From: Corallococcus exercitus
GTDB lineage: Bacteria; Myxococcota; Myxococcia; Myxococcales; Myxococcaceae
Assembly (NCBI RefSeq): GCF_003611585.1
Contig: NZ_RAVW01000068.1
Span: 1 to 29,627, forward strand
Direction of reading: 5' to 3'
DNA length: 29,627 nucleotides
Shown: in pieces, positions 8,261 through 23,024 of the stretch
Layout: each line of letters begins with the position of its first letter
Position numbering within the stretch: the first letter of the stretch is position 1
Program-made: the position numbers and the translations under genes
Notes under the pieces: generated by a model
Told to the model about the DNA's origin: nothing
What the model saw: the letters and a program-made list of their open reading frames with translations, nothing else
Database searches by the model: none

Positions 8261-9018
8261 GCACGCGAAAAAAGCTGACACTCATCACCTACGCCCCTGC
8301 CCTCGTGGGCAAAGACAGCCGCACGCTCAATGTCATCCATGGAATGGAGAATGCGTTCCCTGGCTTACGACTGGAGTGGGAAGTTGGCGAAAGTGGGCGC
8401 CCCATCGCGTTGCCACAGCGTGACACCTGGCTCGTGGAAAGAATCGAGGACGGTGGATTCCCGGTCGTGTGCAACGGGGACGAACGTTACCCCGTGACGG
8501 TCTGGGCAATTGAAAGCTCAGGGCTCTCCAGTCCAGGCGGACAGCCCCAATTTGAAGTGCACGCAAAACTGCCACTGGACGGGCCCGTGGTCGCGGCAGC
8601 GGCGGCTCTGCTTGAGGCCGTGGCGGAGGGGGCACGGTCGTTCTGGGGTCATGCGTCGCCGTATGGCTACGGCTCAGAGGTCGCGCAGCAGTTCCGCCGC
8701 TCGCCAGACGACCCCGAGCGTTCACCCCGTGGGCTTCCAATGCTCAACCTTCCGGAGAAGAGCCCCAGGGCGGAGACTCCCTCTTTCCTCGGGTGGCTGA
8801 ACTATTGGTCCGCGGCTGCCGCGGAGGTCATCGGGTTCCCGGATCCTGCTCGCGATGCCGAGTTGCTCACGCGGGCACGTCGCACTCCGTCAGGCGGGTG
8901 GATCGTGCAGCTCACGGATGCACCGCTTGATTACGACAACCCCACTCACCTGGAAGCGCTCAAGCGGGCCTATGAGCGCTTCCCGGTGATTGGCGGGCGC
9001 ACAGCGCCTCGACTGTGA
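8257..9018 (+). CDS. Putative cognate immunity protein (translationally coupled to upstream toxin gene)
   Basis: ATGA start/stop overlap with the upstream gene (ATG 8257-8259 / TGA 8258-8260). Low GC in the 5' half. No signal peptide. No known catalytic motif. Confidence 0.6.
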   Translation: MSTRKKLTLITYAPALVGKDSRTLNVIHGMENAFPGLRLEWEVGESGRPIALPQRDTWLVERIEDGGFPVVCNGDERYPVTVWAIESSGLSSPGGQPQFEVHAKLPLDGPVVAAAAALLEAVAEGARSFWGHASPYGYGSEVAQQFRRSPDDPERSPRGLPMLNLPEKSPRAETPSFLGWLNYWSAAAAEVIGFPDPARDAELLTRARRTPSGGWIVQLTDAPLDYDNPTHLEALKRAYERFPVIGGRTAPRL

Positions 9019-9019
9019 C

Positions 9020-9709
9020 TCAGCCGCGAGCGGCCCGTGCGTCGCGGCCCCGGGCGCGGGCGGCCTTGGAGAGCACGTCGCTCCCCTTCTCCTCGCCCTT
9101 CATCCACGCCTTCATCGCGGGCACCACCTGCTTGCTCCAGGCGCGGCCGGCGCGCATGGGCAGGAAGTCCTGCACCAGCGCGTCCACGAGCCCGGAGAGC
9201 TGCTCGGTCAGCTCCAGCCGTTCGGAGAGCTGATCATCCTCTTCCTCGGTCATCAGCGCGGGCAGCTTGGCGGCGCGGATGTCCAGGAACTCGGAATCGA
9301 GGGTGACTTCGTATTCGCGCTCGCCGTGCGAGATGCGCAGCCGCGCCTGGGACACCAGCAGGCCCCGGTCCAGCGAGTGGCGAACGTTCTCCGAGTACGG
9401 CGCCAGCGTGCCCTTGGCGCTCATCTCCGTGACGTCGCCGGCCACGCCGCGCAGCACCACCTTGCCCAGGAAGAGGACGACCACGCCCGCGCCGTCGAAC
9501 TCCACGAGGGGGTCACCCGACTCCGAGCGCCACAACAGCCACGTCATGAACTCGCGGCCCAGGTAGGCCCGGCCGCGCAGCAGCTGTTCGCGGGCCTTGC
9601 CCTTTTCGACTTCGGCTTCGTCCTTCTCCTCCTCGGTGGCGACGCCATCCACGCCAACATCGCCCCGTGCGAACGCCGCCTCTTCCCTCGCCTGCTCACG
9701 CTTCGCCAT
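9020..9709 (-). CDS. rdgC: RdgC-like recombination-associated protein, C-terminal portion (gene apparently split by frameshift)
   Basis: Recalled similarity of the C-terminal ~100 aa to the E. coli RdgC C-terminal region; acidic linker after MAKREQ. Starts 13 nt inside the end of the preceding RdgC N-terminal ORF, in another frame. Confidence 0.45.
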   Translation of the reverse strand: MAKREQAREEAAFARGDVGVDGVATEEEKDEAEVEKGKAREQLLRGRAYLGREFMTWLLWRSESGDPLVEFDGAGVVVLFLGKVVLRGVAGDVTEMSAKGTLAPYSENVRHSLDRGLLVSQARLRISHGEREYEVTLDSEFLDIRAAKLPALMTEEEDDQLSERLELTEQLSGLVDALVQDFLPMRAGRAWSKQVVPAMKAWMKGEEKGSDVLSKAARARGRDARAARG

Positions 9710-10346
9710 GGGCGTCCTCCACCGAAGCCGTCGCCGGCAGGTCCATGCCAATGAGCTCCGCCGTGGGGCCCAGGGCCTTCTCGTCGATGCCCGCGCGCTG
9801 CGCCATGGACGCGGGCGTGATGCCAATCACCTTCACCGCCAGGGCGCCTTCCAGCGCCACGCAGATTTCATCCACCGTCTTGCGCGACGCGGCCCAGATT
9901 TGCACCGTCTGCGTCTTCAGGTTCCACGTCACGTCCAGCACGCTGGTGCGCGGCACGGCGCGCTGACGCAACAGCTGCTTGAGCTCAGCGCGCTGCTTGT
10001 TCTTCTCCGCGCGCGCGGGCGGCCGGCCGTTCTCCTTTGCGAAGGCGGCGGACCACTTGTCCAGCTCCGACTTCATCATCGACGCGGGCACCTTCAGCGT
10101 GTCGATGCGGAAGCCGAACAGGGCGTACTCGCCATAGAAGAGGTTTCCGGTGGCGAACTCGGAGGACTCCGGGTTCTCCAGCTCCACGAAACCCGCGGCG
10201 CGCTCCTCCTCGGAGCGGCGGTCGATGGGTTCGAATGCATGGGACTTGAGTCCCTTGGTCAACCAGCGCTTGACGTCGGACGGCGCATCCTTGGCCGGCT
10301 CGGTCCGGAAGCGCGAAAAGGTCACGGCACCACGTAGGACAGGCAT
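9696..10346 (-). CDS. rdgC: RdgC-like recombination-associated protein, N-terminal ~215 aa
   Basis: MPVLRGAVTFSRFRTEP..., then LKQLLRQRAVPRTSVLDVTWNLKTQTVQIWAASRKTVDEICVALEGAL, which aligns with E. coli RdgC [50 protein letters not shown]. ATG at 10346; the upstream extension in the ORF track is Arg-rich junk. Confidence 0.6.
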   Translation of the reverse strand: MPVLRGAVTFSRFRTEPAKDAPSDVKRWLTKGLKSHAFEPIDRRSEEERAAGFVELENPESSEFATGNLFYGEYALFGFRIDTLKVPASMMKSELDKWSAAFAKENGRPPARAEKNKQRAELKQLLRQRAVPRTSVLDVTWNLKTQTVQIWAASRKTVDEICVALEGALAVKVIGITPASMAQRAGIDEKALGPTAELIGMDLPATASVEDAHGEA

Positions 10347-10497
10347 GGGGCGCGGCAGGATGGGGGGCGCGTGGCGTCGCGTCAAGGCACTCGGTGTGGC
10401 TGGACGGAGCGGCCCGGGAATAGCCCGCGCGCGAAACCGTTTGCCCGTGCTCCGTCCAACCGTGCACGCCTCCGCCCCTCCCCGCCGGCGGGAAACC

Positions 10498-12021
10498 ATG
10501 ACACTCCCAGGCACGCGACATACGGTGGCCGCCGCCATGCGCCGCGCCCTCTTCCCCGCCAGCGTTGCCCTCTTCCTGTCCGCCTGCACCCACGCGCCCG
10601 CCACGCCGGACGGCGCCCCGCGTAACACCCTGCCCGGGGTGACGAACGCCCTGCTGGGGACCCTGGAGGCGGACGGGGCGATCACCGGCGCCTATGTGGT
10701 GGATGCACGCACCGGGGAGCCCCTCTTCACCCACCGGGAGAACGTGCGGCTGTTGCCCGCGTCCACGATGAAGGTGGTGTCCACCTCCGCCGCGCTGTCC
10801 GCGCTGGGGGCGGACTTCCGCTTCGTGACGCCGGTGTCCCTGGAGGGCTCGCAGACGGGAGGCCTGTTCCTGGGCGACGTGGTGGCGCAGGCGTCCGGGG
10901 ACCCGTCGCTGGGCTCGTGGCGCTTCCCGGAGACGGCGCTCGCGTGCGACCGCATCGCGGAAGCCTTCCAGGCTCGCGGCATCCACCAGTGGCGCGGCAA
11001 CGTGCGCATCGCCGGCACGGACGGCGTGGATGGCGGCCTGGGCCCCGGCTGGGCCTGGGACGACGCGGCGTATGCCTACAGCGCGGCGCCCACGCCCTTC
11101 GTCTTCCGCGAGAACGTGGTGGACCTGGCGCTGGCACGCGCTCCCGGCGCCACCTGCGCGGACGCGCCTTCCGTCCAGTGGACCCCCACCTTCGCCACGC
11201 TGTCCGCGGTGGTGAACGTGGACGTCAACGCGGAGCGCACGAACCTGGCCTGCGTGCGCGGCGGTGGCGGCGTGCGCTGCACCTGGCGCTCGCCCTCCGG
11301 TGGGCCGTGCCCCCAGTCCGCCGCGGTGAAGCTGTCCGTGGACGCGCCGGAGGCCCTCTTCGCCGCGTGCGTGGACGACGCGCTGGCGCGGCACGGGGTG
11401 ACGCGGCTGCCGCTCTCGCTGGAGGCCCCCACCTCGCCCATGCCGCCGGTGCCGGTGCCGCTGGTGGAGCTGACCAGCCCGCCCCTGTCGGAGCTGGTGC
11501 GCGCGACGAACAAGGAGAGCCTCAACCTGTACGCGGAGCGGCTGGGCATGCGCTTCGCGCGCGAGCGCACCGGCAACGAGGGCTACGCCGCGCTGCGCAC
11601 GGCCCTGGTCGCGGAGCTGACGCGCCGGGGCGTGCCGTCCAAGGACCTGCGCCCGGTGGATGGCAGCGGCCTGTCCCGCTACAACCTGGCGTCGCCCCGG
11701 GGCATGGCGCGGGTGCTGCTCACCAGCCTCCAGGAGCCCTACGGCGCCGCGCTGGTGGACAGCCTGCCGGTGCTGGGCGTGGACGGGACGCTCGCGGGCC
11801 GCAAGACGACGCTGTCCACCGCGGGCCGCATCCGCGCGAAGACGGGAACGCTCACGGGCCAGAAGTGCTTCGTGGGCGTGGCGGAGCGGCCCAACGACCC
11901 GGAGCACCCGCGCGTCGTCTTCGCGCTGATGCTCGGCAACATGGACGAGGGCACGAAGCCCAACGCCAATGAGACCTTCGACACCTTCTCCACCGCCCTG
12001 GTGGAGCTGCCCCTGCGATGA
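10498..12021 (+). CDS. dacB: D-alanyl-D-alanine carboxypeptidase/endopeptidase, PBP4 (peptidase S13) family lipoprotein
   Basis: Lipobox: MRRALFPASVALFLSAC. S13 signature AITGAYVVDARTGEPLF...LLPASTMKV (SxxK), then LSRYNLASPRGM, KTGTL. The ATG at 10498 starts the ORF as MTLPG..; MRRALF (10537) is an alternative. The ORF-track entry 10150 is extended upstream. Confidence 0.85.
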   Translation: MTLPGTRHTVAAAMRRALFPASVALFLSACTHAPATPDGAPRNTLPGVTNALLGTLEADGAITGAYVVDARTGEPLFTHRENVRLLPASTMKVVSTSAALSALGADFRFVTPVSLEGSQTGGLFLGDVVAQASGDPSLGSWRFPETALACDRIAEAFQARGIHQWRGNVRIAGTDGVDGGLGPGWAWDDAAYAYSAAPTPFVFRENVVDLALARAPGATCADAPSVQWTPTFATLSAVVNVDVNAERTNLACVRGGGGVRCTWRSPSGGPCPQSAAVKLSVDAPEALFAACVDDALARHGVTRLPLSLEAPTSPMPPVPVPLVELTSPPLSELVRATNKESLNLYAERLGMRFARERTGNEGYAALRTALVAELTRRGVPSKDLRPVDGSGLSRYNLASPRGMARVLLTSLQEPYGAALVDSLPVLGVDGTLAGRKTTLSTAGRIRAKTGTLTGQKCFVGVAERPNDPEHPRVVFALMLGNMDEGTKPNANETFDTFSTALVELPLR

Positions 12022-14328: not shown

Positions 14329-14766
14329 ATGAGCCCGCTCATCCCCTACTTCATCCTTTCGCCCGTGGTCGCGGGCGGCCTTGCCTGGTGGACGCTCACC
14401 CGCCTTGGAAAGAAGCGGAACGCCCGCGCGAAGGGTTCGCTCGACGCGGTGGTGACGCGGCTGCGAGGGCAGAAGGCCACCGGCACGGCGGACCTCTTCG
14501 TCCAGGACGTGTCCTGGTCCGGAGAGACGGAGCTGTCGCCGCAGAACTGCCGCATCCGCGTGGTGATGGGCGGCCGGGACGCCGCGAGCATTCCTCCGCG
14601 CTTCGAGGTGGAGAGCGCACCGGGAGCCCCCCGCCCGCCCGCGGACGTGCTCGCGGCGCTGCGGGTGCTGGATGCGCAGGCGACGGAGGCCCTGAAGTCC
14701 GGCGGCTGGAGCTGGCAGCGGCCCACGGTGTCCTTCGAGCCAGTGAAGGCACCTCCCTCGGCATGA
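14329..14766 (+). CDS. Hypothetical protein with one N-terminal TM helix
   Basis: LIPYFILSPVVAGGLAWWTLTRL hydrophobic segment. High-GC codon usage. No recognisable domains. Confidence 0.55.
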   Translation: MSPLIPYFILSPVVAGGLAWWTLTRLGKKRNARAKGSLDAVVTRLRGQKATGTADLFVQDVSWSGETELSPQNCRIRVVMGGRDAASIPPRFEVESAPGAPRPPADVLAALRVLDAQATEALKSGGWSWQRPTVSFEPVKAPPSA

Positions 14767-14962
14767 AGGGGAGGGGCTCACTAGCGCCAAGCGACGGAAT
14801 ACTCGGCGCTTGCGGCAAACTCCGCGCCGAACTCTGCGCGACTAAAATACGACTACTCTCAAGACAACTCAGATCCGGGCTATATCCACCGGGCCTCTGA
14901 ATTCATCTCACGAGAAAGTCTCCCCCGATAAGAGCAACTCACATCGGCAGTTCCCCGAAACC

Positions 14963-15814
14963 ATGACAATAGCGGCCGCCTGGATCCGCCAGACGAAAAC
15001 TGTTCAAGAGCTTTTCATCGCATCAGATAGCCGACTTTCTGGAGGCATGCGTTGGGATCAGTGCCCCAAAATATTGGTACTTCCTAGATCAGACTGCGCG
15101 ATCTGCTTTGCTGGAGATACCGGCTACACATATCCACTAATGCTACAGCTGGCGAACGCAATCGATGCCTTTGAAAAATCCCGTACGCGCGCCGACGACA
15201 TTCGAAAATTGCGTGGCCATGTCGTCAAAACATTTAACGCACTATACGATGCAATTAAGGGCCAAGCTCCCGGCGAAGATGCGGCGGGGACTGAGTTTCT
15301 ATTAGCAGGCTACTCGTGGGTTTCAAAAGAGTTCAAGATCTGGAAGATCGCGTACAACAAGACCGAGAAGAAATTCGTCCACATTACTCCCAGGGCTCTA
15401 CTTGGCACACAGCTTCGAGTTGTTGAGTTTGCTGGCGACTGGGCGCCCATCGCTCGCAACAGACTAAGAACCCTGATGAAAACCCGTCTTGGTCCTCCAC
15501 CCCTGAAACGATGGAGAGGCCTTGACATGGAACCGCTAGAAGTCATTCGAGACCTGCTTCGTAGCAGCGGCCCTGATGACACCATTGGCGGCGCACCACA
15601 AGTCGTAAAGATTTTCCAACATCTCAATGCTCGCCCATACATAATCCCATGGATACATGAGGGGAAAACAATTCATACCCTTTTTGGACGGCACCTACTC
15701 CCATACGAAACTACTCGCCTTGGCATTCTAGATGTGGACACGATGCAGACATCTAGGCATGGCCTAAAAAATCCAACCACGCAAGAAAGGCATATTTTCT
15801 CCTATTCCTTTTAA
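14963..15814 (+). CDS. Proteasome-beta/HslV-like N-terminal-nucleophile (Ntn) hydrolase-fold protein with ~100-aa C-terminal extension (islet gene)
   Basis: MTIAAAW (Thr directly after Met, as for a Thr1 nucleophile). [13 protein letters not shown] and [35 protein letters not shown] resemble HslV TTIVSVRR..VVIAGDGQATLGN and [36 protein letters not shown] resembles the proteasome LLVGGYD motif. Lies in a visibly AT-richer region. Confidence 0.55.
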   Translation: [283 protein letters not shown]

Positions 15815-15844
15815 TCGCAACAAGAACGACACGATTATCGGAGA

Positions 15845-15870
15845 GGGAAACATGAGGGTTTCCCTTATCT
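15845..15870 (+). terminator. Hairpin downstream of the Ntn-like gene
   Basis: GGGAAAC-atgag-GGTTTCCC followed by TTATCT. Confidence 0.4.
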
Positions 15871-15946
15871 AGCAAGTCAATCAGCGTGCGTTCGCCCGGT
15901 CGCTGCGTGCGACGACACTGGCGCACGGGCAGAGAGGAAGGCCACC

Positions 15947-16460
15947 ATGACGCGCAAGGAGGCCATCCACAAAGAGCAAGTGCGAGCGTTCTTGACGGAG
16001 GCTTTCGAGGACGACCTGTACGTCAACCGAATCCTCTTCCTCTCACACACGCCCATGGGCGGCACAGACCACCAGTCTGTCCGTAGCGGTCATTGGCAAG
16101 GCCATGGCGTGGGCACGGGACGAGGACGACACCTCCAAGCATGCCGTGAAGCAAGTGGACCACCTGCTGTCCAATGGGAGCTTCGAGGTCTGGAAGCTGT
16201 TCGATGCCTGTATGCTTCGTGCTGGCCGAGCGCACTGAGTCGTGACAATGACAGGGAACCGCATCTTGATCACGCCTACGGCAGCAAGGACACTGCCCCC
16301 GAAGCATCTCGTCCACGCACGGGCGGAGCGCCACCACCACCTACCGGAGTCGGTTCCTACCCAGGAAAGGCGAAGGTCTGTGCGCGGTTTGAGCATCAGG
16401 CTCCCCGAAGTTGAGTGCGTTGCCTGCCGCCCGCACAGCGGAACTTCTGTGACGGGCTGA
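15947..16460 (+). pseudogene. Decayed gene remnant spread over three reading frames (at least two frameshifts)
   Basis: Frame a: MTRKEAIHKEQVRAFLTEAFEDDLYVNRILFLSHTPMGG. Frame b: VIGKAMAWARDEDDTSKHAVKQVDHLLSNGSFEVWKLFDACMLRAGRAH. Frame c: MTGNRILITPTAARTLPPKHLVHARAE.... Each piece looks protein-like, but they are not colinear in one frame. Confidence 0.35.
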
Positions 16461-16503
16461 GGAATGCAGCGCCACCATGCGCCGCATGTCCTCGTCCTTC
16501 CTC
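16417..16503 (+). repeat. Direct repeat copy 1 (87 nt): diverged duplicate of the 5'UTR + first 10 codons (MRRMSS[S/T]FL) of the downstream alanine-racemase-fold gene
   Basis: Gap-free alignment with 17514-17600, 69/87 identical (by-eye count). Core CATGCGCCGCATGTCCTCG[T/A]CCTTCCTC is 29/30 identical. Confidence 0.7.
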
Positions 16504-16622
16504 AAGTCGCCCCCCTCACATGGGGAGAGGTCTTGCCCCCATCCAATGTGGGCGACTTTAATGCAGCAGCAAAGGAACGGGCGAACTGCTCTCGCAACTG
16601 ACCAGCGCGCCTCCAGCTCTCT

Positions 16623-17420
16623 ATGTCCGACCTTACCAAGTTTGAGATGCGTCAATTCGAGCGGCTGTTCGGGATGAGTTCCGGCTACGTGCTAAATTTT
16701 TCAAACCGAACATTCGAAGACTTCATTGCCGATAGCGCAAAAAGAATTATCTCCGAACCAAAGTATTACAGACACTCCGGTTCTAAAGCCAATCGACTGC
16801 GGGCCTTCTGGGAAGTAGAACCTAATCATGTCGTCGGAAAGCTTTCAGCCGACTTACTGGACTACACTCGCATCGAAAAGCTCATTGAGAACAAGGACCT
16901 ATTCGACTCCTGCCAAAAGATCGCCCAGCGCCTTCTCCATGATGCGCCGGCAATCAACATCGACGCCTTGACGCCAGTATCAACGGAAAGAGAGTTCGAA
17001 GCACTTGTGAATGCTGTCAAAATCTCAATCGAAAACAACGAACCGGAGTCGGCACTGGATCGGCTTCACACATTTTTCATCAAGTACTTACGACTCGTTT
17101 GCAGCGGCCGAAAAATCTCTATCGATAGAGAGAAGCCGCTCCACAGCCTGATGGGCGAGTACATCAAGGCACTAAAGCAGCAAAACGCGATCGAATCAGA
17201 AATGACCGAACGCATCCTCAAGTCAACCATTAGCCACCTGGACGCATTCAGCCGCGTCCGCAACGAACAAAGCCTCGCCCATGACAATAGAATGCTAAAT
17301 TACGAAGAAAGCCTACTCATCTTCAATCAAGTAACGAGCACCGTCAGGTTCATCCGTGCCATAGAAGATCGCTTGGCAAAGCAGGCTGCTCCAGTGGCCG
17401 ACGATGACATCCCCTTCTGA
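16623..17420 (+). CDS. AbiJ-like abortive-infection protein: N-terminal AbiJ-NTD-like domain + C-terminal HEPN (Abi_C) domain
   Basis: Visibly the lowest GC in the window. C-terminal SRVRNEQSLAHD fits the HEPN Rx4-6H motif (R-NEQSLA-H). Overall size and layout match the AbiJ / Abi_C family. Bracketed by the 87-nt direct repeats. Confidence 0.55.
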   Translation: MSDLTKFEMRQFERLFGMSSGYVLNFSNRTFEDFIADSAKRIISEPKYYRHSGSKANRLRAFWEVEPNHVVGKLSADLLDYTRIEKLIENKDLFDSCQKIAQRLLHDAPAINIDALTPVSTEREFEALVNAVKISIENNEPESALDRLHTFFIKYLRLVCSGRKISIDREKPLHSLMGEYIKALKQQNAIESEMTERILKSTISHLDAFSRVRNEQSLAHDNRMLNYEESLLIFNQVTSTVRFIRAIEDRLAKQAAPVADDDIPF

Positions 17421-17513
17421 CTCCAGTTCTACAGATCCGAACTCAGGCAGAACGATGGAGCCGCAGCCTGCTTGCCCCTGAGTTTCTGGCGATGTAACTG
17501 GCAGGGCTTGATG

Positions 17514-17600
17514 GTTGGTTGCAGCGTTGCCTGCCGCACGTCCGGCGGGATTCGGGTGACGGGTCGGGAAACGCGGTGCCAGCATGCGCCGCATGTCCTC
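17514..17600 (+). repeat. Direct repeat copy 2 (native 5' end of the alanine-racemase-fold gene)
   Basis: See copy 1. Contains the functional ATG at 17584. Confidence 0.7.
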
Positions 17601-18678
17601 GACCTTCCTCGATACGCTCGACACGCCCGCCGCCATCGTGGACCTGGCCCGCGTGGAGCGGAACCTCCAGCGCGTCGCGACCTACGCTCGCGAGCACGGC
17701 CTGCGCTGGCGTCCCCATACGAAGACGCACAAGACGGCGGAGCTGGGCGCGATGCAGGTCGCGGCGGGAGCCACCGGCGTCACGGTGGCCACCGTCCTGG
17801 AAGCCGAGGTCATGGCTTCGGTGTCCGACGACGTGCTGCTCGCGTACCCGCCGGTGGGCGAGCGCAAGCTGGCGCGGCTGATGGCCCTGCCTTCGCGCGT
17901 GCGGCTCACCGTGGCGCTCGACTCCCATGACGTGCTGGAGGGCCTGGCGCGCGCGGCCCGGGACGCGGGGCGCACCGTGGGCGTGCTCGTGGAGGTGGAC
18001 CTGGGCATGCGCCGCGTCGGGCTGCGCACGCCGGAGGAGACCGTGGCCCTGGCACGCGCGGCGGCCTCCACGCCTGGCGTGGCGTTTCGCGGGGTGACGT
18101 TCTACGCGGGCCACATCCGCATCCCCCAGGCGGAGCTGCCTTCCGCGATGGGCGCCCAGTCGGCAGCACTGGCGACGTTCGTGGGCGCATTGAGCGACGC
18201 GGGCCTGCCGCCGGAGGTGGTCAGCGGCGGCTCCACGCCGACCCTCTGGCAATCCCATACCGTGAAGGGCCTCACGGAGATCCGCCCGGGACTCAATGCG
18301 CTGAACGACCGCAACGCGGCGGTCATCGGCGCCTGTGATTGGACGGAGTGCGCCTATTCCGTGCTGGCCACCGTGGTGAGTACGGCCGTGCCCGGCCAGG
18401 TGGTCATCGACGCGGGGGCCAAGGCGCTGGTGAAGGAGGAAGGGCTGGCGCCGGGCTATGGCGTCCTGCTGGACCGGCCAGAGGTCGTGGTGAAGAACCT
18501 GTCGGAGGAGCACGGCCTGCTGGACGTGTCCGGCACGACGTGGCGCCCCCGCATCGGCGAGCGGGTGCGCGTGGTGCCCAACCATGTCTGTGTTTCTGTC
18601 CCCCAGCATCCCCGGCTGTACGTCGTGCGCGGCGACACGCACGTGGCCACGTGGGAGGTCGCGGCACGCGGCTGGTGA
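17584..18678 (+). CDS. PLP-dependent alanine racemase-fold (fold type III) enzyme, D-serine dehydratase-like / D-threonine aldolase family
   Basis: LRWRPHTKTHKTAELG (PHxKxHK PLP-lysine motif of the DSD1/D-TA family). Ala_racemase_N-like N-terminus. C-terminal beta-domain. Confidence 0.8.
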   Translation: MRRMSSTFLDTLDTPAAIVDLARVERNLQRVATYAREHGLRWRPHTKTHKTAELGAMQVAAGATGVTVATVLEAEVMASVSDDVLLAYPPVGERKLARLMALPSRVRLTVALDSHDVLEGLARAARDAGRTVGVLVEVDLGMRRVGLRTPEETVALARAAASTPGVAFRGVTFYAGHIRIPQAELPSAMGAQSAALATFVGALSDAGLPPEVVSGGSTPTLWQSHTVKGLTEIRPGLNALNDRNAAVIGACDWTECAYSVLATVVSTAVPGQVVIDAGAKALVKEEGLAPGYGVLLDRPEVVVKNLSEEHGLLDVSGTTWRPRIGERVRVVPNHVCVSVPQHPRLYVVRGDTHVATWEVAARGW

Positions 18679-18688
18679 ACCCCGCGCC

Positions 18689-19684
18689 TCAGACGATGCG
18701 CTGCAGCTCCTGCGTCAGCATCTCCTCCAGGTGCCGGATGTTCCGGTAGACGAGGCACCGGTAGCTGGACACATCGAAGCGCAGCTCCTTCACGTCGCGC
18801 ACCAGCATCAGGGTGGGCTTGCCGCGTCCCCAGGCGTAACCCACCTCCAGGTAGACATTGGGGTTCGCCAATGACAGGTCCGCGATGACGACCTTCGCGG
18901 TGTCGATGCGGTCCCGGATGCGCTGGATGATGGGACCGTCGAAGATGGCCTGATCCACGCGCTCGCACAGGAGCCCGGCCGACTTCACCGGATTCAGGAT
19001 GCCGTAGTGGTAGGTGTCCTCCAGCTCCGGCGCGAAGGGCATCGCCACGAAGGCGTGGGGCTTCTCGTTGGAGTTCGCGCCCGCGGAAGCCATGGGCGGC
19101 GCCTGGACGAAGCGGGACGTCCGCCGGACGCGGAAGCCCGTGGCCCCCATCAGCGGCTCCACGCCCGGCGTGAGCCCCAGCCCCAGCGCGATGGCCTTGC
19201 GCAGCCGCTCCACGCGCTTCGGGTTCAGCTCCACCACCGTGATGCGCTCCAGGTTGCGCGGGCCGCTGCCGCGCTGGAACGCGTCCACGAAGCCGCCCAC
19301 CAGGGCCAGCACGGCCTCGTCCTCATCCAGCCCGTAGTTGGGGCCGTGCACCGTGCACGCGAGGTGACGCACCTCGTGCCGGGGCTCCAGGAGCTGGAGC
19401 GCGCGCACGGAGAACTGGCGGATCTCGTGGTAGCCGAACTGGCGCAGGCGCACCGTGCCCAGGAAGAGCACCAGCGGAGCGCCCAGGCTCCTGCGCGTGT
19501 CGATGAAGCGGTGGTCCCCGGGGAGCAGGTCGAAGGCGTCCATGGCCACGCCCGCCGCCTCCAGCCGGCGCGACACCGCGCCGTCCGCCCCGTGGAAGCC
19601 CTGCGCGTACTTCAGCAGCACGGCATCCGCGGCCGTCTCCCCCACGTCCCCCAGGTCCACCACGACGTCCAGCGTGTCTCCCAT
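18689..19684 (-). CDS. Two-domain protein: N-terminal Macro-like (ADP-ribose-binding) domain + C-terminal SLOG / nucleoside 2-deoxyribosyltransferase-like Rossmannoid domain (ThsA-like architecture)
   Basis: Macro: VVVDLGDVGETAADAVLLKYAQGFHGADGAVSRRLEAAG vs the consensus VxGDITxxxxDAIVNAANxxLxxGGGVxxAIxxAAG. C-terminal: FVAMPF...KVVIADLSLANPNVYLEVGYAWGRGKPTLML, the NDT/SLOG-type pattern (AD...E.GYA..GKP). Confidence 0.7.
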   Translation of the reverse strand: MGDTLDVVVDLGDVGETAADAVLLKYAQGFHGADGAVSRRLEAAGVAMDAFDLLPGDHRFIDTRRSLGAPLVLFLGTVRLRQFGYHEIRQFSVRALQLLEPRHEVRHLACTVHGPNYGLDEDEAVLALVGGFVDAFQRGSGPRNLERITVVELNPKRVERLRKAIALGLGLTPGVEPLMGATGFRVRRTSRFVQAPPMASAGANSNEKPHAFVAMPFAPELEDTYHYGILNPVKSAGLLCERVDQAIFDGPIIQRIRDRIDTAKVVIADLSLANPNVYLEVGYAWGRGKPTLMLVRDVKELRFDVSSYRCLVYRNIRHLEEMLTQELQRIV

Positions 19685-20792: not shown

Positions 20793-20966
20793 TCCGCCGT
20801 CCTGCGCCGTCCCGCTTTGTACCCTCCGAGAGCGTCTGGCTTCACCCGGAGAGGAAATGCTTCATCCCAGACAGACAATCGCCCTGCGAAAGCAGTTGTC
20901 TGTCCAACACCTCACGGCTGGTATTGGGAATGCAATCACGCCACTCCGGAGCAACCGGGAGGCGTC

Positions 20967-22979
20967 ATGCAAGGCAGGGCTGTGCGTTGGGGCAGGAGAA
21001 GTCTGGGGTGGCTGTCCGCGTTGGTGCTGTGCACGCATTGCGGTGGAGTGGCGGAACAGGAGCAGGCAGGACCGGAGGCCGCGGCGCCTCCGGAAGCGGT
21101 GAAGGCAGCACCGCTGGCGACGGGATGCATCTCCGAGACGATCTACGAGACCTTTGGAAGCCGGCGGGAGGGTGACGCGTACGTGGACGCCGCCCGGCCG
21201 ACGACGAACTTCGGGAACGACCCGTTGCTCCTGGTGGATGGCTCGCCCCAGCTGGCGTCGTACATGAAGTTCAGCGTGACGAATGACGACGCGTACTTCC
21301 CCATCGTCGGGGCGACGCTGAACATGTCCGTCCTGGATGGCAGCACGGATGGGCCCGCCCTCTACCGCACCAGCACCGGGTGGAGCGAGGACACGCTGAC
21401 CTGGAACACGCGGCCCGCGCCACAGGGTGACCCGCTGGGAGACCTGGGCAACGTGGAGAGCAACACCTGGGTGACGTACGACGTGAGCGCCGCGGTCCGG
21501 AGCTCGGGCGAATACGCCTTCGCGCTCCTGCCCACCGGCGGCAACGGCGTGGACATCGAGTCCGAAGAATCCAGGAACATCGGCCCCATGTTGAACCTCA
21601 CGCGCGCCATCACGTACTGCTCGCGCCAGGGCACGGGCGGCGCACTGCAGGGGGTCTGGAAGTACGGCGGCCCGGGAGAGGAGATGCCCTCCGCGGTGGC
21701 CGCCGCTCCCGATGGCGGCTGGGTCGTCGCGGCGCGCTTCTACACCTCCGGTGACTTCGGCGGAGGGCCGGTGAATGCCCCCGCGTACCTGGTGCTCGCG
21801 AAGTACGGCCCGGACGGGTCGCATCAGTGGTCGCGCAGCTACGTGCCCTTCGTCACCGGAGGCGTGCCGGACATCACCGTGGGCGGGTTGGCGGTGACGT
21901 CGCTCGGCAACATCCTCATCGCGGGCTCGTACTCCGGCAGCCCCGACCTGGGGACGGGGGCCCTGCCGGCGACCTACGGGAACATGCCGGGCGTCTTCAT
22001 CGCGAAGTATTCGCCCAATGGCACGCCGGTCTGGTCCAAGGGCTTCCTCGCGGGGACCCCGCAGGTCGGCTCCTTGGAGAAGGTCCCCGCCCGGGCGTTG
22101 GCCGTCGCCACGGACGCTTCCGGAAGCCTCATCGTCACGGGCAGGTTCAGCGGGCAGATGGACCTGGGAGGCGGCGTGCTGGACTCCGGCGCCACCGTGG
22201 CGGGCCGGGAGGCGCTCTTCGTCGCGCGCTTCTCGTGGGAGGGGCAGCACCTGTGGTCGCGCGTCCATGGGGCCGGGAACACAGGCTCCGAGGGCCAGGC
22301 GCTCGCCACGGACAGCACCGGCGCGGTGCTGCTCGCGGGCGTCGCGAGCCCCCACCCCACCAACACCCCGCTGGGGGTCCAGGGTCCCCGGACGCCCTTC
22401 GTGGCGAAGTACTCGCCCACGGGCGCGCTCCAGTGGTCCCGCGCGCTCAACGGCGGCCAGGGCACCATGCGGGGCGTCGTCGCGCGGCCCGGGGACGCCG
22501 TGGCCTTCACCGCCACCTTCACCGGCAGCTTCCCCTTCGCGGGGCGCACCTATAGCGCCAGCCTGGATGATCCGTACCTCAGCCGCACGGACATCATCCT
22601 GGGCGCGCTGTCGGCGTACGGCTCGGACCAGTGGGGACGGCAGCTGGGCGATCCCCAGACCGGAGACCGGGCCTTTCAATTGGGCGTGGATGGCCAGGGC
22701 CGGCTGACGCTGCGGGGCGACCTGTCCGCGCAGGTGGACCTGGGTGGAGGCCCCATCGGCCACCCGCGCTACGTGTCGAACTTCGTGTCGCGGTACGCGG
22801 CGGACGGCTCTCACCTGTGGTCGCGGGGCATGGACCCGAACCTCACGCCCGTCATGGCCGTCAACAGCGCAGGGGAGACCATGATCGCCAACCACCTCTT
22901 CCGGACGGGCACGGTGGAGGGGACGTTCCATACCGCCAACGGTCCTGGCGACCTGCTGCTGCTGAAGCTCGCGCCGTAG
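20967..22979 (+). CDS. Secreted/lipoprotein with N-terminal DNRLRE-type carbohydrate-binding-like domain and SBBP beta-propeller repeats
   Basis: GGGAGG RBS then ATG 20967. Signal peptide with C-rich end (LVLCTHCGG). TGWSEDTLTWNTRP (DNRLRE/malectin-like motif). Repeated ...YGPDGSHQWSR.. / YSPNGTPVWSK / YSPTGALQWSR / YAADGSHLWSR units typical of the myxobacterial SBBP repeat. Confidence 0.8.
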   Translation: MQGRAVRWGRRSLGWLSALVLCTHCGGVAEQEQAGPEAAAPPEAVKAAPLATGCISETIYETFGSRREGDAYVDAARPTTNFGNDPLLLVDGSPQLASYMKFSVTNDDAYFPIVGATLNMSVLDGSTDGPALYRTSTGWSEDTLTWNTRPAPQGDPLGDLGNVESNTWVTYDVSAAVRSSGEYAFALLPTGGNGVDIESEESRNIGPMLNLTRAITYCSRQGTGGALQGVWKYGGPGEEMPSAVAAAPDGGWVVAARFYTSGDFGGGPVNAPAYLVLAKYGPDGSHQWSRSYVPFVTGGVPDITVGGLAVTSLGNILIAGSYSGSPDLGTGALPATYGNMPGVFIAKYSPNGTPVWSKGFLAGTPQVGSLEKVPARALAVATDASGSLIVTGRFSGQMDLGGGVLDSGATVAGREALFVARFSWEGQHLWSRVHGAGNTGSEGQALATDSTGAVLLAGVASPHPTNTPLGVQGPRTPFVAKYSPTGALQWSRALNGGQGTMRGVVARPGDAVAFTATFTGSFPFAGRTYSASLDDPYLSRTDIILGALSAYGSDQWGRQLGDPQTGDRAFQLGVDGQGRLTLRGDLSAQVDLGGGPIGHPRYVSNFVSRYAADGSHLWSRGMDPNLTPVMAVNSAGETMIANHLFRTGTVEGTFHTANGPGDLLLLKLAP

Positions 22980-22994
22980 GCACCGCTTCACCCT

Positions 22995-23024
22995 GGAGGC
23001 CCGCGGCCGTGAGCGCGGGCCTCC
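22995..23024. terminator. Perfect 10-bp-stem hairpin between convergent genes
   Basis: GGAGGCCCGC-ggccgtgagc-GCGGGCCTCC. Confidence 0.55.

Follow-up and report, generated by a model that had tools for sequence, protein, structure and literature searches.

The DNA examined here is a 29,627-nucleotide stretch of Corallococcus exercitus (contig NZ_RAVW01000068.1, assembly GCF_003611585.1), referred to below as the window, and coordinates without a locus number are window positions. The two proteins of interest each have a 100% identical NCBI entry from this species. Between two core genes it carries a composite strain-specific insertion of 2782 bp (14744–17525; GC 0.537), the limits of which were set by blastn against the empty site. 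Two genes are found in the insertion. ORF-A (14963–15814, + strand) encodes a 283-residue protein, WP_147441886.1, predicted to be a stand-alone N-terminal-threonine hydrolase of the proteasome fold without a propeptide. ORF-B (16623–17420, + strand) encodes a 265-residue Abi_C protein of the AbiJ/SadR type, with a HEPN domain preceded by an all-helical N-terminal domain (residues ~1–105). The two genes are separated by 808 bp, in which an insertion-sequence stump and a duplicate of the right junction are located. A preliminary description of this DNA had proposed a defence islet in which a protease and an RNase might act as a pair. In this study, we describe the insertion and its boundaries, the predicted folds and conserved residues of both proteins and the genomic surroundings of their relatives, and we weigh the possible roles of ORF-A.

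The insertion and its boundaries

The GC content is 0.51–0.52 at 15001–16000 and at 16501–17500 and 0.62 at 16001–16500, against about 0.69–0.70 in the flanks. Codon usage differs likewise: the GC content at third codon positions (GC3) is 0.49 in ORF-A (overall GC 0.499) and 0.60 in ORF-B (overall GC 0.492), compared with 0.88–0.99 in four flanking genes. The lower-GC stretch with atypical codon usage between high-GC genes that the preliminary description had pointed out is thus real, and its limits can now be refined to 14744–17525.

The empty site is present in a second C. exercitus strain (GCA_013116615.1; locus L033), which is colinear with the window at 94–96% identity barring three strain-specific segments, of which 14744–17525 is one. 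Homology between the two strains (blastn) stops at 14743 and restarts at 17526. In L033, 24 bp separate a gene for a 143-residue hypothetical protein from a D-TA/D-serine-dehydratase-like (DSD) gene, and the islet replaces these 24 bp; the same empty site occurs in four further Corallococcus genomes (L034, L035, L045 and L046). The left flanking core gene of the window (14329–14766, + strand; 145 residues, hypothetical) loses its homology to the L033 and L034 orthologues at 14743, 23 bp short of the present stop codon. The 2782-bp block is therefore an insertion, and its sequence has taken the place of the last ~8 codons of this gene as well. The right flanking core gene, which encodes a pyridoxal phosphate-dependent enzyme of the D-TA family (17584–18678, + strand; Pfam Ala_racemase_N and D-ser_dehydrat), is intact and 95% identical to its C. 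exercitus orthologue. In C. terminator the same intergenic site is occupied by different cargo, namely two alpha/beta hydrolases and a 250-residue gene (L047, 2716–5901). Since the site is empty in relatives and holds unrelated cargo in C. terminator, we regard it as a recurrent variable spot in Corallococcus.

The sequence between the two genes

Downstream of ORF-A lies a remnant of an IS4-family transposase gene (15947–16214, + strand), of whose ~384 codons the first ~92 are left, interrupted by one frameshift near 16065–16075. The frame-repaired peptide matches annotated IS4/ISAs18 transposases on plasmids (tblastn, E 2e-9 to 4e-7). In a 384-residue IS4 transposase of Rhizobium, residues 41–92 align to 16065–16214 and no alignment is found beyond residue 92 downstream of 16214. 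A gene remnant broken over three frames had been reported here; the decayed gene exists, but three-frame translations allow two frames to be assigned, not three.

The remnant is followed by an internal, diverged copy of the native right junction (16419–16503, + strand; 85 bp), which spans the DSD upstream region and the first nine DSD codons with a pseudo-start ATG at 16477. These nine codons account for a spurious open reading frame beginning MRRMSSSFL. The native copy of the repeat (17526–17610, + strand) holds the right junction together with the genuine 5′ end of the DSD gene (ATG at 17584) and is 94% identical to L033, which equals the level of the flanks. The internal copy is 82% identical to L033 9943–10027 (blastn) and 80–84% identical to every Corallococcus version compared, and no donor was found among the Corallococcus genomes compared; a repeat search aligned 16417–16510 with 17524–17617 at 78% identity. 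The junction repeat brackets ORF-B only, and it is the trace that would be expected from a Campbell-type insertion of an ORF-B cassette together with a homologous segment from another lineage. In view of the IS4 stump, the junction copy and the GC profile, we read the islet as a mosaic of two low-GC single-gene cassettes with higher-GC debris between them.

ORF-A: predicted fold, putative active site and family

The ORF-A protein begins with Met-Thr, and no in-frame start codon is present between the preceding stop codon and the ATG. No match was obtained in Pfam (E ≤ 1), PADLOC-DB v2 (E ≤ 1), NCBIfam or PHROGs, or among PDB sequences (phmmer, E ≤ 10), and among PDB entries a family profile found HslV alone (4hnz, E 0.033). 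Since the sequence databases gave no match, the identity of the protein came from structure prediction alone. The predicted monomer adopts the four-layer alpha-beta-beta-alpha architecture of the proteasome-like N-terminal nucleophile (Ntn) hydrolases, with strands S1–S10 and helices H1–H4. Fold-comparison scores are highest for 20S beta subunits (up to 17.6, with 185–191 residues aligned), followed by Anbu (16.2), 20S alpha subunits (15.9), HslV (14.4), BPH (13.4), other Ntn hydrolases (9–11) and connectase (9.3). The earlier suggestion of a proteasome/HslV-like Ntn fold with Thr directly behind the initiator Met is confirmed by the predicted fold, its HslV, Anbu and 20S beta matches and the M1-T2 terminus.

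The residues expected of a proteasome-type active site are almost invariant among 247 full-length relatives: Asp22 is found in 241 of 241 sequences, Lys36 in 244 of 244 and Gly51 in 245 of 246. Thr2 is present in 231 relatives and replaced by Ser in two, the rest having N-terminal gaps; 210 begin with MT, and the family profile begins at protein residue 1 in nearly all matches. In the predicted structure Thr2 precedes S1, Asp22 stands at the end of S2, Lys36 at the start of S3 and Gly51 at the end of S4. The corresponding positions in the proteasome family are Thr1, Asp17, Lys33 and Gly47 (PMC8665760). Thr2 would thus become the N-terminal nucleophile after loss of Met1, as may be expected from the known specificity of methionine aminopeptidase, and Asp22, Lys36 and Gly51 would occupy the positions of Asp17, Lys33 and Gly47. 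In a weak hhalign match to Escherichia coli HslV (E 0.006), Asp22 falls on Asp17 and Lys36 on Lys33; hhalign of the family against the Thermoplasma acidophilum beta-subunit sequence gave no meaningful alignment. Further family-invariant motifs are G-Y-S-W (116–119), G-D (158–159) and [ST]-I-G-G-x-P-Q (207–213). The conservation of the catalytic residues argues for an active hydrolase, and judged from sequence ORF-A is most likely an active propeptide-less N-terminal-threonine peptidase or amidase without a fixed partner. What is said in this paper of its activity as an enzyme, of its substrate and oligomeric state or of a phenotype in defence we infer.

More than 430 homologues of ORF-A, sharing 36–52% identity and ~270–300 residues long, were collected, and all of them are annotated as hypothetical. 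They originate from Firmicutes, Proteobacteria, Leptospira, Planctomycetota, Chloroflexi, Acidobacteriota, Bacteroidota and Verrucomicrobiota, with Bacillus, Klebsiella plasmids and Aeromonas also among the carriers. A search with a hidden Markov model (HMM) of the family returned 896 clusters (50% identity) at E ≤ 1e-3 and 343 at E ≤ 1e-30. No informative domain fusions were found in the longer members; an apparent SDR fusion in one relative is probably a gene-call artefact.

ORF-A differs in several respects from the known proteasome-fold families. In contrast to 20S beta subunits, HslV, Anbu and BPH (MEROPS T1), it has no sequence-level match to Pfam Proteasome or to a PDB chain, and compared with the proteasome-like Ntn hydrolases it possesses ~90 extra residues, among them longer loops and a C-terminal beta extension, a feature of the whole family, that carries the [ST]-I-G-G-x-P-Q motif. 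Unlike HslVU and Anbu, the family has neither an AAA+ partner (HslU) nor an Anbu-type operon with ATP-grasp and transglutaminase genes in the 40 loci compared, and unlike housekeeping proteasome-like hydrolases it is sporadic and mobile. The 22 new families of proteasome homologues that were reported by Fuchs, Alva and Lupas (2021), including PMI-1 to PMI-6, WPH and PHD, are all propeptide-less; many have insertions and C-terminal extensions, their distribution across bacterial phyla is patchy and some occur in phages (PMC8665760). The ORF-A family resembles them in being uncharacterised and propeptide-less, with a broad phyletic spread like that of the PMI-type families, and it may be one of the 22; none of the published representative accessions is among those retrieved for 10 ORF-A family clusters. 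The survey found no genomic context or co-occurrence that hinted at function (PMC8665760), in contrast to the defence and mobile-element context seen for the ORF-A family. Connectase, an archaeal monomeric proteasome homologue that acts as a protein ligase and sequence-specific transpeptidase (PMC8665760), is likewise a proteasome-fold enzyme that stands alone and has no partner, with Thr at its N-terminus and an extra domain at its C-terminus.

ORF-B: an Abi_C/HEPN protein

The Pfam model Abi_C (PF14355) scores 45 bits on ORF-B (E 1.1e-11), above its gathering threshold of 24. The motif RNEQSLAH is located at residues 213–220, with R213, N214, A219 and H220 invariant in the family; both the four-helix HEPN fold and the catalytic motif R-phi-x(3-5)-H of HEPN proteins are recognised. 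Residues 1–176 gave no Pfam match at E ≤ 5, the AbiJ_NTD models NTD1–5 included. The gene had previously been described as AbiJ-like with a HEPN domain, and of this the Abi_C assignment, the RNEQSLAH motif and the HEPN fold hold, but the AbiJ-type N-terminal domain finds no match. A family search returned 4185 matches, the best 120 of which, leaving aside the 100% entry of ORF-B itself, are 54–71% identical and all annotated as Abi_C. The closest relative, at 71% identity, directly follows a type I restriction–modification (R-M) operon.

AbiJ is one of the HEPN families of abortive-infection (Abi) proteins, solo members of which are found in R-M operons (PMC3710099). SadR, an Abi_C protein with the motif RNEYGDAH, has been shown experimentally to act as a single gene, an RNase by which both phages and plasmids are blocked, and 2,257 of 2,815 Abi_C proteins lack a recognised N-terminal domain (PMC13590631). 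With AbiJ of Lactococcus and SadR of Staphylococcus aureus, ORF-B shares the Abi_C domain, a similar size, a stand-alone gene and relatives beside R-M systems, and its R-N-E-x4-A-H motif has nearly the same form as that of SadR; it differs from AbiJ in that its N-terminal ~105–170 residues match no Pfam AbiJ_NTD model or other family. PADLOC, which had been put forward as a check on the islet, matched neither ORF-A nor ORF-B, its AbiJ models included; for ORF-B the null result agrees with the finding that PADLOC matches no Abi_C protein (PMC13590631). ORF-B is one more ordinary representative of a known family of single-gene defences and adds nothing new. By analogy, its helical N-terminal domain would hold the C-terminal HEPN RNase (R213-N214...H220) in check, and release upon infection would lead to RNA degradation, by which phage or plasmid propagation would be aborted.

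Relationship between ORF-A and ORF-B

HMMs of both families were used in a six-frame scan of every locus with an ORF-A relative, extending up to 10 kb on each side. Besides the window, 39 loci from isolate genomes, metagenome-assembled genomes (MAGs), plasmids, E. coli and IMG/VR contigs were covered, and an ORF-B-type gene was found in none of the 39. Neighbours of at least 70 residues, compared all against all by BLAST, yielded no recurring ORF-A partner, and no conserved small open reading frame of 25–90 codons lies within 700 bp of the ORF-A relatives, in either case outside one clonal prophage group.

These results bear on the proposal that the two genes make up a joint defence system, in which the protease would sense infection or process a substrate and so activate the HEPN RNase, or the reverse. 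The common strand, the common low GC and the shared insert are in keeping with such a pair, as are the HEPN-family genes beside ORF-A relatives in L019 (DUF4145, with overlapping stop and start) and L010 (ApeA-like). In L019, a Flavobacteriales MAG (8901–10513), the start of the DUF4145 gene overlaps the stop of the ORF-A relative and both genes have low GC3; this is the only locus with an operon-like protease–HEPN arrangement. With ORF-B itself counted, however, the HEPN neighbours represent three families that are unrelated to one another; when the ORF-B family was aligned by hhalign with the L019 HEPN protein, the E value was 0.54 and no relationship could be detected. As HEPN genes are moreover common in defence islands, we take the L019 and L010 genes as neighbourhood and not as partnership. 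The pair is further opposed by the gap with its IS4 stump, by the junction duplicate that flanks ORF-B only, by the solo occurrence of the closest ORF-B relatives (the gene beside the closest one is unrelated to ORF-A) and by the fact that Abi_C proteins act as single genes (PMC13590631). We thus consider a two-gene system extremely unlikely. The preliminary description, which had itself taken a lack of co-occurrence elsewhere as evidence against its protease-plus-RNase pair, had offered two independent cargo genes as the fallback; the absence of co-occurrence and of any conserved neighbour, together with the insertion-sequence stump and the repeat between the genes, supports the view that ORF-A and ORF-B are two independently acquired cargo genes.

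Genomic contexts of ORF-A relatives

In Peribacillus, the ORF-A relative adjoins PIN and AIPR genes, a methyltransferase and polymorphic-toxin immunity genes. The relative in Desulfovibrio has a KAP NTPase, HicAB, Bro-N and an R-M system as neighbours, and that of a metagenomic Firmicute has a serine recombinase and GmrSD. On a conjugative IncFIB plasmid of Klebsiella it is located near LeoA-type dynamin GTPases. Altogether, 150 neighbours within 3 kb in 27 loci include PifA, AbiU, RmrA, MADS, PD-T4-6 and QatA, as well as type I, II and III methyltransferases and three integrases. Eight plasmid records, five of them conjugative, carry an ORF-A relative, and in many loci its GC3 is far below that of the surroundings.

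A retron-like arrangement occurs in L053 (1721–5946), where an HTH gene, a retron-type reverse transcriptase (RT), a 192-residue gene, the ORF-A relative, a Schlafen/AlbA_2 ATPase and Mrr follow each other in this order. The RT has 311 residues and its best PDB matches are the RTs of retrons Ec86, Ec67 and Ec83; the arrangement recurs in L054–L060, and it is part of a mobilisable element that carries MobA and RepA_N. With gaps of 14 and 27 bp in the row formed by the RT, the 192-residue gene and the ORF-A relative, the latter may belong to a retron operon; an Rfam scan of L053 found no retron noncoding RNA. Among 5426 complete E. coli genomes, 128 carry a copy of an ORF-A relative of at least 99% identity in the tRNA-Ile/ypjA island, beside a tyrosine recombinase.

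In four IMG/VR contigs (L037, L039, L040 and L042), the ORF-A relative lies between a 635-residue gene, for which no PDB sequence match was found, and a lambda-type portal gene, which matches PDB 8k38 (E 6e-45). In the related contig L038 the 635-residue and portal genes are adjacent and the ORF-A relative is found elsewhere. This variable position, in L037 compared with L038, is the pattern of a prophage moron. The family has no match in 50,697 isolated phage genomes.

Two further loci bring ORF-A relatives close to genes of related interest. In L011, a Chloroflexi MAG, the gene beside the ORF-A relative (4697–5428, − strand) matches Pfam Proteasome (PF00227, E 6e-12); as this neighbour is convergent and has equally low GC3, two different proteasome-fold genes share one AT-rich islet. 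In L048 (4673–11520), a gene of the ubiquitin-conjugating-like type Prok-E2_D immediately precedes the ORF-A relative, and a ThiF/E1-like gene follows ~4 kb further downstream; the element also holds an RT, a 5′-3′ exonuclease and DNA polymerase III gamma.

ORF-A might also be mobile-element cargo with a role other than defence, such as a protease for element maturation or of a housekeeping type, part of a toxin/addiction module or an anti-defence factor. Such a role would fit the relatives placed between the 635-residue and portal genes in prophage-like contigs and those on conjugative plasmids, as well as the relatives found beside a Pfam-recognisable proteasome-family gene (L011) and beside Prok-E2_D and ThiF-like genes; the families reported by Fuchs et al. 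likewise came without a functional context (PMC8665760). Nevertheless, the lack of matches in isolated phages speaks against a core phage role or one in anti-defence, the variable position in phage contigs (L038 compared with L037) is as expected of a moron, no cognate antitoxin-like small open reading frame is conserved, and the neighbours are frequently stand-alone defence genes, not structural or replication genes. A non-defence role therefore seems to us unlikely, but worth keeping in mind. The contexts are those of accessory cargo in the zone of conflict between phages and mobile elements, and they are suggestive of a role in defence.

Other features of the window

Directly beyond the D-TA gene, a 331-residue gene (18689–19684, − strand) matches the PADLOC TIR 'Effector' model with its C-terminal ~80 residues (E 2e-13); it also shows a weak match to Pfam nucleoside 2-deoxyribosyltransferase and several PHROGs matches. 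This TIR-like gene was considered as part of the islet and rejected: because it is kept at the same position in all of the Corallococcus genomes compared, including every genome with the empty site, it is a core gene. A 758-residue homologue of the eukaryotic major vault protein (MVP) is encoded at 4839–7118 (− strand) and is conserved in other Corallococcus genomes; it has both Vault repeats and the shoulder domain of MVP (E 3e-45).

The other two strain-specific segments are located on either side of the islet. The segment at 7265–9019 comprises 1755 bp, compared with 365 bp in L033, with a GC dip to 0.56 at 8001–8500 and a DUF5953 gene at 8257–9018 (E 5e-114). The insertion at 20796–23023 comprises 2228 bp, compared with 13 bp in L033; its GC content is normal and it holds an open reading frame of 720 codons (20817–22979).

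Discussion

Taken as a whole, we consider it probable that a variable spot between two core genes has taken up a mosaic insertion with two independently acquired single-gene cassettes, of which ORF-B would be a HEPN defence gene in its own right and ORF-A a mobile threonine hydrolase with a likely role in conflict. For ORF-A, a role in the conflict between phages and mobile elements is the most likely one because the family travels as cargo of prophages, in the manner of morons, of plasmids and of defence islands and in the vicinity of retrons. In such a setting ORF-A would act as a single-gene effector of defence or exclusion that cleaves a phage or host protein. The narrower proposal, that the family is a single-gene anti-phage or anti-plasmid immunity protein in which a threonine protease of the proteasome fold cleaves a phage or host target upon infection, is offered tentatively and is doubtful at present; no literature linking proteasome-fold, HslV or Ntn proteins to anti-phage defence was found in the library searched. 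The term 'defence islet' used in the preliminary description is accordingly well founded for ORF-B, but for ORF-A only its context speaks in favour of it.

Several observations weigh against this interpretation. The catalytic residues of ORF-A were placed by conservation, by position within the secondary structure and by the weak hhalign match (E 0.006). An invariant Asp, D159, apparently takes the position at which Ser129 of the proteasome is expected (G-D compared with G-S129), and the chemistry of ORF-A may therefore differ from that of the proteasome. HEPN genes of three families, namely Abi_C in the window, DUF4145 in L019 and ApeA-like in L010, stand beside ORF-A relatives in three of the 40 loci, window included, so that ORF-A relatives may occasionally be linked in function to HEPN partners. 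Many of the 150 neighbours are housekeeping genes, for example SecDF, MreB and enolase, and PADLOC models match only three of 20 immediate neighbours in 10 unselected genomes; the association with defence is qualitative for these two reasons. Lastly, the ORF-A relative of E. coli KE47 (L043, 12290–13174), the one E. coli copy that was translated, is a nonsense pseudogene with a stop at codon 192 and is annotated there as a 191-residue hypothetical protein.

The premature stop in the KE47 copy raises the question of whether ORF-A is a catalytically dead or decaying passenger without current function in the C. exercitus genome. A scan for the sigma-70 consensus, which is of limited relevance for myxobacteria, found no promoter-like site in the insert, as would suit such a passenger. 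On the other hand, ORF-A in the window is of full length and keeps every invariant residue of the family, which is itself strongly conserved across phyla at 36–52% identity, and we regard decay as very unlikely.

The ORF-A family provides a useful lead. It comprises approximately 900 clusters (50% identity) of strongly conserved proteasome-fold hydrolases that are unnamed in the domain and defence databases searched, and its mobile, defence-island-like lifestyle makes the function of orphan bacterial proteasome homologues directly testable. Tractable hosts exist, since the family is found in Bacillus, on Klebsiella plasmids and in Aeromonas. Connectase shows that proteins of this kind can be sequence-specific transpeptidases instead of bulk proteases (PMC8665760). 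Should the proposed role of ORF-A prove true, bacterial immunity would gain its first effector of the proteasome fold, and one of the 'orphan' proteasome homologues would for the first time be assigned a function.

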